Positions 202-2,485 of a stretch of 2,485 nt of DNA are shown here, piece after piece; within the stretch, counting starts at the first letter, position 1, and each line of letters begins with the position of its first letter. The translations under genes were made by a program, and so were the position numbers. The notes beneath the pieces were generated by a model. That model did no database searches and had not been told where the DNA came from. It saw only the letters and a program-made list of their open reading frames with translations. Source of the stretch: Escherichia coli (GTDB lineage: Bacteria; Pseudomonadota; Gammaproteobacteria; Enterobacterales; Enterobacteriaceae); NCBI RefSeq assembly GCF_003334355.1, contig NZ_QOWP01000075.1, one strand, 5' to 3'.

Positions 202-2485
202 ATGGGTAAAGGAAGCAGTAAGGGGCATACCCCGCGCGAAGCGAAGGACAACCTGAAGTCCACGCAGTTGCTGAGTGTGATCGATGCCATCAGCGAAGGG
301 CCGGTTGAAGGTCCGGTGGATGGATTAAAAAGCGTGCTGCTGAACAGTACGCCGGTGCTGGACACTGAGGGGAATACCAACATCTCCGGTGTCACGGTGG
401 TGTTCCGTGCCGGTGAGCAGGAGCAGACACCGCCGGAGGGGTTTGAATCCTCCGGCTCCGAGACGGTGCTGGGTACGGAAGTGAAATATGACACGCCGAT
501 CACCCGCACCATTACGTCTGCAAACATCGACCGTCTGCGCTTTACCTTCGGCGTGCAGGCACTGGTGGAAACCACCTCAAAGGGGGACCGGAATCCGTCG
601 GAAGTCCGCCTGCTGGTTCAGATCCAGCGTAATGGTGGCTGGGTGACGGAAAAAGACATCACCATTAAGGGCAAAACCACCTCGCAGTATCTGGCCTCGG
701 TGGTGGTGGGTAACCTGCCGCCGCGCCCGTTCAATATACGGATGCGCAGGATGACGCCGGACAGCACCACAGACCAGCTGCAGAACAAAACGCTCTGGTC
801 GTCATACACCGAAATCATCGATGTGAAACAGTGCTACCCGAACACGGCACTGGTCGGCGTGCAGGTGGATTCGGAGCAGTTCGGCAGCCAGCAGGTGAGC
901 CGTAATTATCATCTGCGCGGGCGCATTCTGCAGGTGCCGTCGAACTATAACCCGCAGACGCGGCAATACAGCGGTATCTGGGACGGAACGTTTAAGCCAG
1001 CATACAGCAACAACATGGCCTGGTGTCTGTGGGATATGCTGACCCATCCGCGCTACGGCATGGGGAAACGTCTTGGTGCGGCGGATGTGGACAAATGGGC
1101 GCTGTATGTCATCGGCCAGCATTGCGATCAGTCGGTGCCGGACGGTTTTGGCGGCACGGAGCCGCGCATCACCTGTAATGCGTACCTGACCACACAGCGT
1201 AAGGCGTGGGATGTGCTCAGTGATTTCTGCTCTGCGATGCGCTGTATGCCGGTATGGAACGGGCAGACGCTGACGTTCGTGCAGGACCGACCGTCGGATA
1301 AGGTGTGGACCTATAACCGCAGTAATGTGATGATGCCGGATGATGGTGCGCCGTTCCGCTACAGCTTCAGCGCCCTGAAGGACCGCCATAATGCCGTTGA
1401 GGTGAACTGGATTGACCCGAATAACGGCTGGGAGACGGCGACAGAGCTTGTGGAGGACACGCAGGCCATTGCCCGTTACGGTCGTAACGTCACGAAGATG
1501 GATGCTTTTGGCTGTACCAGCCGGGGGCAGGCACACCGCGCCGGGCTGTGGCTGATTAAAACAGAACTGCTGGAAACGCAGACCGTGGACTTCAGCGTGG
1601 GTGCGGAAGGGCTTCGCCATGTACCGGGCGATGTCATTGAAATCTGCGATGATGACTATGCCGGTATCCGCACCGGCGGGCGCGTGCTGGCGGTAAACAG
1701 CCAGACCCGGACGCTGACGCTCGACCGTGAAATCACGCTGCCATCTTCCGGCACCACGCTGATAAGCCTGGTTGACGGGCAGGGGAGTCCGGTCAGCGTG
1801 GAGGTTCAGTCCGTCACCGACGGCGTGAAGGTGAAAGTGAGCCGTGTTCCTGACGGCGTTGCTGAATACAGCGTATGGGGGCTGAAGCTGCCGACGTTGC
1901 GCCAGCGCCTGTTCCGCTGCGTGAGTATCCGTGAGAACGACGACGGCACGTATGCCATCACCGCCGTGCAGCATGTACCGGAAAAAGAGGCCATCGTGGA
2001 TAACGGGGCGCACTTTGACGGCGACCAGAGCGGCACGGTAAATGGTGTCACGCCGCCAGCGGTGCAGCACCTGACCGCAGAAGTCACCGCAGACAGCGGG
2101 GAGTATCAGGTGCTGGCCCGCTGGGACACGCCGAAGGTGGTGAAGGGCGTGAGCTTCCTGCTTCGCCTGACCGTGGCAGCGGATGACGGCCGTGAGCGGC
2201 TGGTCAGCACGGCCCGGACGACGGAAACCACTTACCGCTTCACACAACTGGCTCTGGGGAACTACAGGCTGACAGTCCGGGCAGTAAATGCGTGGGGGCA
2301 GCAGGGCGATCCGGCGTCGGTATCGTTCCGGATTGCCGCACCGGCAGCGCCGTCGCGGATTGAGCTGACGCCGGGCTATTTTCAGATAACCGCCACGCCG
2401 CATCTTGCGGTTTATGACCCGACGGTACAGTTTGAGTTCTGGTTCTCGGAAAAACGGATTGCGGATATCAGGCAGGTTGAAACCA
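202..2485 (+). CDS. J: Phage tail tip / host-specificity protein J (central tail fibre), N-terminal ~761 codons; 3' end lies outside the window
   Basis: ATG at 202 is preceded by an in-frame stop at 196..198 and a GGAG at 190..193. Frame 1 is then open for 2284 nt to the window edge, with a third-position G/C bias typical of coding sequence. The translation begins [34 protein letters not shown]..., which I recognise as lambda gpJ. Gene order I then J with a 60-nt spacer matches the lambda tail operon. Absent from the ORF track only because there is no stop codon in the window. Confidence 0.95.
2050..2340 (+). other. Fibronectin type III-like beta-sandwich module within J (about aa 617..713)
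   Basis: Translated segment [28 protein letters not shown]...[34 protein letters not shown] shows FN3 hallmarks: a Pro-rich start, a conserved Trp in the predicted B strand, and the tyrosine-corner-like pattern NYxLxVxAxNxxGxxxxPS. A second module with the same opening pattern ([17 protein letters not shown]...FEFWFS) starts near 2341 and runs off the window. Confidence 0.55.

Follow-up and report, generated by a model that had tools for sequence, protein, structure and literature searches.

The tail tip of phage lambda is the closest described system for the locus studied here. In 2020, an HHpred analysis placed FN3 repeats at residues 570-811 of lambda gpJ and suggested that they are possible linkers (PMC7291167). 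The lambda tail-tip structure papers name this pair of domains FNIII-1 and FNIII-2 (PMC10721106, PMC11101478), the naming stemming from the 2023 cryo-EM structure (PMC10721106). In lambda, 3 x 2 FNIII domains form a closed cone, in which the modules pack together on the axis (PMC10721106). The cone seals the tail tube, with the helical shaft holding from below (PMC11101478). After binding of LamB the shaft flips, and the three FN3 strings come apart and move out at right angles to the hub (PMC11101478). The hub and the gpI plug open after receptor binding, and in the opened state the FN3 strings lie beside the fibre, near the membrane (PMC11101478). [quoted passage not shown]

A related arrangement is described for phage T5. 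Its baseplate hub protein pb3 carries a C-terminal FNIII pair after a scaffold of four hub domains, and this pair and that of gpJ are treated as counterparts (PMC10721106). This comparison was made by that paper, without a T5 sequence match on our side. Unlike in lambda, the three pairs of T5 are reported to stand apart and to form no closed cone, and pb4, the fibre, and pb5, the receptor binder, are proteins of their own (PMC10721106). Sealing is not a universal property of the FN3 pair, since the pb3 pairs are reported to be separated. A third group for comparison is that of the accessory Ig-like domains of phages, likewise small beta-sandwich modules of virion proteins, for which, according to the 2006 work as it is cited in PMC10721106, weak adhesion to carbohydrates was proposed.

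We analysed a stretch of 2485 bases, referred to as the window, which comprises the last 141 bases of gene I, a spacer of 60 bases and, from nt 202, the frame of gene J, which stays open for 761 codons up to the window end. All features named below are on the plus strand. The 3' end of the tail tip assembly gene I (1..141) was recognized by the end of the open reading frame with its TGA stop codon at 139-141 and by the annotation of phage records; the product ends with ...GGQVVVIGR. The first 761 codons of gene J (202..2485; tip attachment/host specificity), which runs off the window, were identified by translation, NCBIfam and alignment to PDB chains. The reading frame and the coordinates of the preliminary description, which had been made from the sequence, proved to be right: J begins at nt 202, and codon 617, the T of TPPAV, at nt 2050.

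A megablast search against phage records resulted in 259 matches to the window. The best match was Escherichia phage phiSTEC1575-Stx2k with 99.6% identity across the entire window, and lambda showed 96.4% identity. In the matched phage records the two genes are annotated as tail tip assembly protein I and host specificity/tip attachment protein J. The NCBIfam profile lambda_TipJ matched aa 1-761 with its positions 1-760 of 1163, and the full J protein of the 99.6%-identical phiSTEC1575-Stx2k has 1165 aa. Alignment to the lambda gpJ chains 8iyk_J and 9e7m_Ja was gapless over aa 1-761, with 14 substitutions in 761 positions. This places the window where genes I and J meet in a tail gene cluster of the lambda type and allowed us to fix the domain borders in window coordinates. 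For the comparisons below, L001 is the nearest relative with a full-length J, L002 is lambda and L003 is an Stx2c phage.

Some further observations concern the DNA outside of the domain question. The I-J spacer harbors the strong hairpin AAACCGCC-TGCG-GGCGGTTTT with a T-rich run after it; a 71-nt fold had an MFE of -22.9 kcal/mol and a z-score of -2.3. A terminator is annotated under the matched stretch in two phage records. The terminator scan of the window missed this hairpin and found one site inside gene I, no more than is obtained with shuffled sequences. The promoter scan revealed no promoter-like site in the window, and Rfam gave no match over the entire window. An antisense ORF of 533 aa (802..2403) was rejected as a gene and is considered an artefact of codon usage: it lies in the codon-aligned antisense frame of J, which has only 3 stops in 761 codons, and the longest stop-free antisense stretch in relatives is 152-450 aa. 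An imperfect inverted repeat of 19 nt is located within the coding sequence of FNIII-1.

The J protein is ordered as hub domains, flexible linker, FN3 pair, alpha-helical shaft, beta-prism fibre and receptor-binding domain. The hub domain region matched Pfam Phage-tail_3 at 1189..1695 (aa 330-498, E 3.7e-43). A third FN3-like domain, FNIII-A, is inserted in the hub at 457..822 (aa 86-207; Pfam FNIII-A_GpJ, E 4.8e-41) and sits outside of the FN3 pair noted in the preliminary description (2050-2485). The linker from HDIV to FNIII-1, assigned according to PMC10721106, occupies 1972..2049 (about aa 591-616) and includes one mosaic junction; its aa 602-614 had a pLDDT below 50 in the AlphaFold model. 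FNIII-1 is complete at 2050..2343 (aa 617-714) and is supported by Pfam Ig_J, seven strands in the model and Foldseek. The joint between FNIII-1 and FNIII-2 with the sequence FRIAAPAA (2326..2348, aa 709-716) coincides with an identity switch in three other J genes (L004, L005 and L006). The N-terminal 47 residues of FNIII-2 follow at 2344..2485 (aa 715-761), with a partial match to Pfam Ig_J_second; the domain, which extends over aa 715-818 in full, is cut by the window edge. Phage-tail_3 is thus located upstream of the pair, and in L001 Phage_Tail_Tip and Ig_GpJ_C are located downstream. The alpha-helical shaft proper begins after FNIII-2 at ~aa 809, with a model helix from aa 811, and the earlier placement of the pair in the "J shaft region" was therefore loose.

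Both modules were recognized by dedicated Pfam families. In the window protein, Ig_J (PF24421) matched aa 610-714 with an E-value of 4.3e-41 and Ig_J_second (PF24489) matched aa 716-761 with an E-value of 5.5e-13, covering model positions 2-47 of 105. In the full-length J of L001 the Ig_J_second match was complete (aa 716-818, E 1.6e-39). The two matches are significant, adjacent and in order inside a TipJ protein, which identifies the lambda-type pair. The claim of a complete first module and a second one truncated by the edge (47 of 105 profile positions) is borne out. The FN3 signatures, which had been ascribed to both segments, were all present in module 1: TPPAV (aa 617-621), RW641D, the tyrosine corner GNY688RL, AVNAWG (aa 694-699), which is the sole A-x-N-x-x-G among the 761 aa, and DPAS (aa 703-706). 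For module 2, the window harbors only the Pro-rich start APAAPS (aa 713-718) and FW747F. Its tyrosine corner and V-N-x-x-G-K-S lie past the window edge, at aa 785-798 of the full-length relative.

There were no direct DNA repeats in the region 1900-2485, so that the tandem arrangement does not stem from a recent duplication. BLASTP did not align module 1 with module 2 at E <= 100, and hhalign gave a weak match in register (E 0.0019, probability 14%). From these comparisons the two modules would be distant paralogues at best. The feature itself is already known: the domains have been named, are represented in Pfam and were seen in several solved structures of the lambda tail tip.

We also compared the number and position of the modules in J-like homologues. 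All 17 homologues, with lengths of 906-3530 aa and down to about 30% identity in the FN3 region, had a single module 1 directly next to a single module 2. The position of the pair was about aa 610-810, except in a subgroup whose hub is shorter, where it was about aa 465-660. Despite very variable C-terminal lengths, no extra copies of the modules were detected in the 17 proteins at E < 0.01. The module HMMs were built from the same 17 sequences, which makes the detection of the pair circular; that there are no extra copies remains informative. Thus, the FN3 count that the preliminary description had proposed to make was constant, and an accessory decoration was not borne out: there was neither sporadic presence nor variable copy number among the 17 homologues, such as is described for accessory phage Ig-like adhesion domains. 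Across 25 homologues W641 of module 1 was invariant and Y688, G686, and G699 were conserved in at least 90%. P714, P717, P733, N793, G796, and S798 were also invariant, and Y785 and R790 of module 2 were conserved in at least 90%. Judged from the sequences, the pattern is that of a putative core mechanical element and not of a sporadic decoration.

In comparison to lambda gpJ (8IYK, 8K35, and 9E7M closed; 8XCI and 8XCG open), the protein belongs to the same family and has the same two modules at the same position after the hub and linker. Only point substitutions distinguish the two within the window, and just 3 of the 14 affect the FN3 region (T659A, S664R, and Q752R). We consider it very probable that nt 2050-2485 encode FNIII-1 and the first 47 aa of FNIII-2 and that these form part of a fixed gate-and-hinge element rather than an optional adhesin. 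We infer the gating mechanism of the present phage by transfer from the lambda structures at about 98% identity. By this transfer, the tail tube would be sealed by a closed cone of three pairs. Binding of the receptor at the far tip would twist the fibre, and the shaft would flip and loosen. Next, the three FN3 strings would come apart and swing out on their linkers, at right angles to the hub, and opening of the hub and of the gpI plug would let the DNA out. Unlike the window part, the helical shaft and the receptor-binding domain of L001 are of another allelic type than those of lambda, with identities of 44% (shaft) and 38% (receptor-binding domain). The trigger for release of the FN3 cone could differ in detail from lambda because of these differences.

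The preliminary description had mentioned weak surface adhesion as an implied role of such domains. Modules acting mainly as accessory adhesins, which weakly bind carbohydrates of LPS or peptidoglycan and keep the tail tip near the envelope, are the best of the alternatives, and yet an unlikely one. This possibility was raised in PMC10721106, citing Fraser et al. 2006, and it would fit to the position of the opened FN3 strings near the membrane and beside the fibre (PMC11101478) and to the relation of module 1 to FN3 repeats in very large repetitive proteins. However, weak binding of cell-wall carbohydrates by the FNIIIs was only suggested in PMC10721106, by analogy with the accessory Ig-like domains of phages. 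Those domains, as far as the cited account goes, are sporadic add-ons, whereas the J pair is internal and invariant in number and position among the J homologues. In the closed virion, moreover, the modules are packed against each other on the axis (PMC10721106). The functional framing is weaker than the fold assignment since adhesion is a suggestion by analogy, since the lambda structures show a mechanical role, since the pair is fixed in 17 homologues and since the term "shaft" was used loosely. Adhesion could play a role alongside gating; as an unproven analogy it would be secondary to the gating role documented in lambda.

An even less probable alternative is that the modules are passive spacers, with no role beyond keeping hub and fibre a given distance apart. 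This corresponds to a proposal by Goulet et al., which predates the structures. [quoted passage not shown] Both observations argue against a mere spacer.

To describe the relation of the pair to canonical FN3 domains, we used profile, sequence and fold searches. Pfam fn3 (PF00041) did not match the window protein at E <= 10, and in the full-length relative it remained sub-threshold with i-E-values of 0.22 (aa 628-701) and 3.7 (aa 778-799). The profile check proposed in the preliminary description was positive for the dedicated Ig_J families, though canonical fn3 was sub-threshold. When the 221-aa pair was searched against the PDB sequences (E <= 10), only gpJ chains were returned, plus FN3con (4u3h) at an E-value of 0.24. 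An exhaustive search with the same pair against 1.84 billion representatives (cut-off E <= 0.001) resulted in 495 proteins, some of them very large and matched in 8-26 separate stretches. Domain counts were taken from this search, as a word-index search with a 157-aa segment gave short fragments only. Module 1 alone matched up to 13 repeats in the 3356-aa protein P0170 and also repeats of P0246 and P0247. When a 601-aa stretch of P0170 was scanned, six repeats were assigned to Pfam fn3 with E-values of 1e-13 to 1e-16 and cross-matched Ig_J. By sequence, homology of module 1 to bona fide FN3 domains was found through intermediates. Module 2 could be linked to FN3 only weakly, by its hhalign match to module 1 and by a precomputed PF00041 tag on some fragments.

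The AlphaFold model of the pair was computed from an alignment of 25 sequences (A1) and had a mean pLDDT of 88.4. It showed two seven-stranded beta-sandwiches at aa 622-711 and aa 719-805. The strands of module 1 comprised aa 622-631, 634-642, 651-659, 665-673, 677-683, 686-695, and 705-711. Those of module 2 inside the window comprised aa 719-725, 728-734, and 743-749, and a short helix at aa 756-762 was positioned between strands. The top Foldseek hits in the PDB were lambda gpJ in its closed (8iyk, 8k35, 9e7m) and open (8xci, 8xcj) states, with an E-value of 6e-33 for 8iyk_F, a TM-score of 0.72 for 8xci_F and an rmsd of 1.0 A over 109 columns for 8xcj_F. Next were tandem FN3 pairs of neogenin, fibronectin, LAR, titin, contactins, NCAM, and integrin beta4 with E-values of 1e-9 to 1e-7; the FN3 structures 4ui2, 4bqc, 5n47, 6tpv, 3lpw, 2gee, and 1qg3 were aligned over about 200-217 columns at 11-19% identity. 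The pair shares with canonical FN3 (neogenin FN5-6, fibronectin, LAR, titin) the seven-stranded sandwich, the Trp in strand B, the tyrosine corner and A/V-x-N-x-x-G, but differs by the sub-threshold PF00041 scores of both modules and by the short helix in module 2.

As seen from Ig_J and Ig_J_second, the AlphaFold model and Foldseek, the two consecutive FN3-type beta-sandwiches of the preliminary description are confirmed; aa 617-714 were predicted as a beta-sandwich matching lambda gpJ and not as any other fold. That the signatures are chance motif matches without discrete domains, a reading to which the non-significant canonical Pfam fn3 score and the missing BLASTP similarity between the modules could be counted, is refuted for all practical purposes by the dedicated Pfam matches (E 1e-39 to 1e-41), the solved gpJ structures at about 98% identity and the agreement of model and fold search.

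Finally, the full J gene of L001 was set against seven other lambdoid J genes, both by domain and in bins of 60 nt. Measured against the window sequence, the nucleotide identity of such genes jumps between about 60% and 95-98% at three points: in the linker before FNIII-1, at the FNIII-1/FNIII-2 joint and at the border between FNIII-2 and the shaft. The J protein of L003 had 75-81% aa identity to L001 in the N-terminal hub domains and 57% in HDIV-OB, then 100%, 95%, and 94% in the linker, FNIII-1, and FNIII-2, respectively, and 44% in the shaft. One junction, at which identity rises from about 60% to about 95%, lies at aa 596-613, and the other at about aa 803-821. This would fit a hub of another type that carries a lambda-type FN3 region. 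L004, L005, and L006 showed about 60% identity in FNIII-1 and then 98%; the dense mismatches end at J nt 2124 (aa 708) and the next mismatch follows at nt 2148 (aa 716), which corresponds exactly to the module joint. L006 reverts at aa 737-748, inside FNIII-2. Lambda departs from the window type from about aa 803-821.

Across the phage records FNIII-1 was distributed bimodally, with 129 records at 90% identity or more and 121 at 60-80%. For the entire window there was an additional class of 29 records at 80-90%; four sampled members had 80.9% identity overall, and one of them (L003) was compared in detail. Three of the four junctions seen were at module borders, which, in a small sample of related records, we regard as a lead. 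Deletions or duplications ending at module borders were also observed in P0158 and P0121, which may be prophage remnants or assembly artefacts. Extra junctions from P0121, P0158, P0194, and others were dropped, as most of these proteins have the look of contig ends or of prophage remnants with deletions or fragmentation.

The preliminary description had regarded the modules as plausible sites of domain shuffling. The identity switches at module borders are in line with this, but the exchange appears to be allelic, without gain or loss of domains. The junction pattern points to homologous recombination that replaces alleles while the architecture stays fixed. It is possible, though rather doubtful, that the FN3 borders (aa 596-613, 709-716, and about 803-821) are preferred crossover sites, that the modules are exchangeable cassettes and that the window itself is recombinant.

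For the function of the pair, the expectation is revised from an optional sticky decoration to a conserved gate-and-hinge element in the DNA-ejection machinery, as deduced from lambda. If the borders are indeed preferred crossover sites, lambdoid phages would re-assort hub, FNIII-1, FNIII-2, and fibre/receptor-binding cassettes at module borders. The natural J junctions at module borders show points at which chimeras are tolerated and could guide the engineering of host range.

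The borders of the FN3 modules in gene J, which encodes the tip attachment and host specificity protein, were the sites of mosaic junctions among lambdoid J genes. Comparison with seven other lambdoid J loci (L002-L008) placed these junctions at about positions 1987-2040 and 2326-2348 of the window and beyond its end. For the Stx2c phage (L003), J aa 596-613 marked a rise in identity from about 60% to 95%; the reverse switch occurred at about aa 803-821. The stretch aa 709-716, at the joint between FNIII-1 (aa 617-714) and FNIII-2 (aa 715-818), was the exact site of a switch in L004, L005 and L006, where 60% identity gave way to 98%. 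L006 showed a second switch, back again, at aa 737-748, which is within FNIII-2.

Apparent rearrangements within J were also seen in some database proteins retrieved with the FNIII-1/FNIII-2 pair. P0121 comprised J aa 495-806 followed by aa 595-709 a second time, in P0158 aa 712 was fused to aa 918, and in P0194 aa 488 was fused to aa 765. Prophage decay or assembly artefacts may account for these proteins.

J had a third FN3-like domain, FNIII-A, as an insertion in its hub part (positions 457-822, aa 86-207; Pfam E 4.8e-41); this domain was absent from the account of FN3-like modules in the preliminary description. The coding sequence of FNIII-1 harbored a 19 nt inverted repeat (2056-2074 and 2106-2124) with 89% complementary arms 31 nt apart, possibly by chance. 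A 533 aa ORF was present on the minus strand, antisense to J (802-2403), in the codon-aligned antisense frame, which had only 3 stops in 761 codons. The longest antisense stretch without stops varied from 152 to 560 aa in seven relatives, and its frame differed in some of them. We rejected this ORF as a gene; it is a codon-bias artefact.

The spacer that separates the stop codon of gene I from the start of J (142-201) contained a GC-rich hairpin, AAACCGCC-TGCG-GGCGGTTTT (about 161-181), followed by TTTTGTCATTT, with the T-run extending to about 192. Folding of 71 nt of this region gave an MFE of -22.9 kcal/mol (z -2.3). The phage records Ayreon and 434 carry an annotated "terminator" feature under the stretch matching the window here; a simple terminator scan did not pick up the hairpin.

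The J protein of the closest relative, phiSTEC1575-Stx2k (L001 3202-6699), has 1165 aa, while that of lambda (L002 3202-6600) has 1132 aa. The two proteins differ in the helical shaft, where identity is 44% and the alignment has a gap of 28 residues, and in the receptor-binding domain (38% identity). The receptor-binding domains of the closest relative and the Stx2c phage are 94% identical. On this basis, receptor use by the closest relative is probably unlike that of lambda with LamB.
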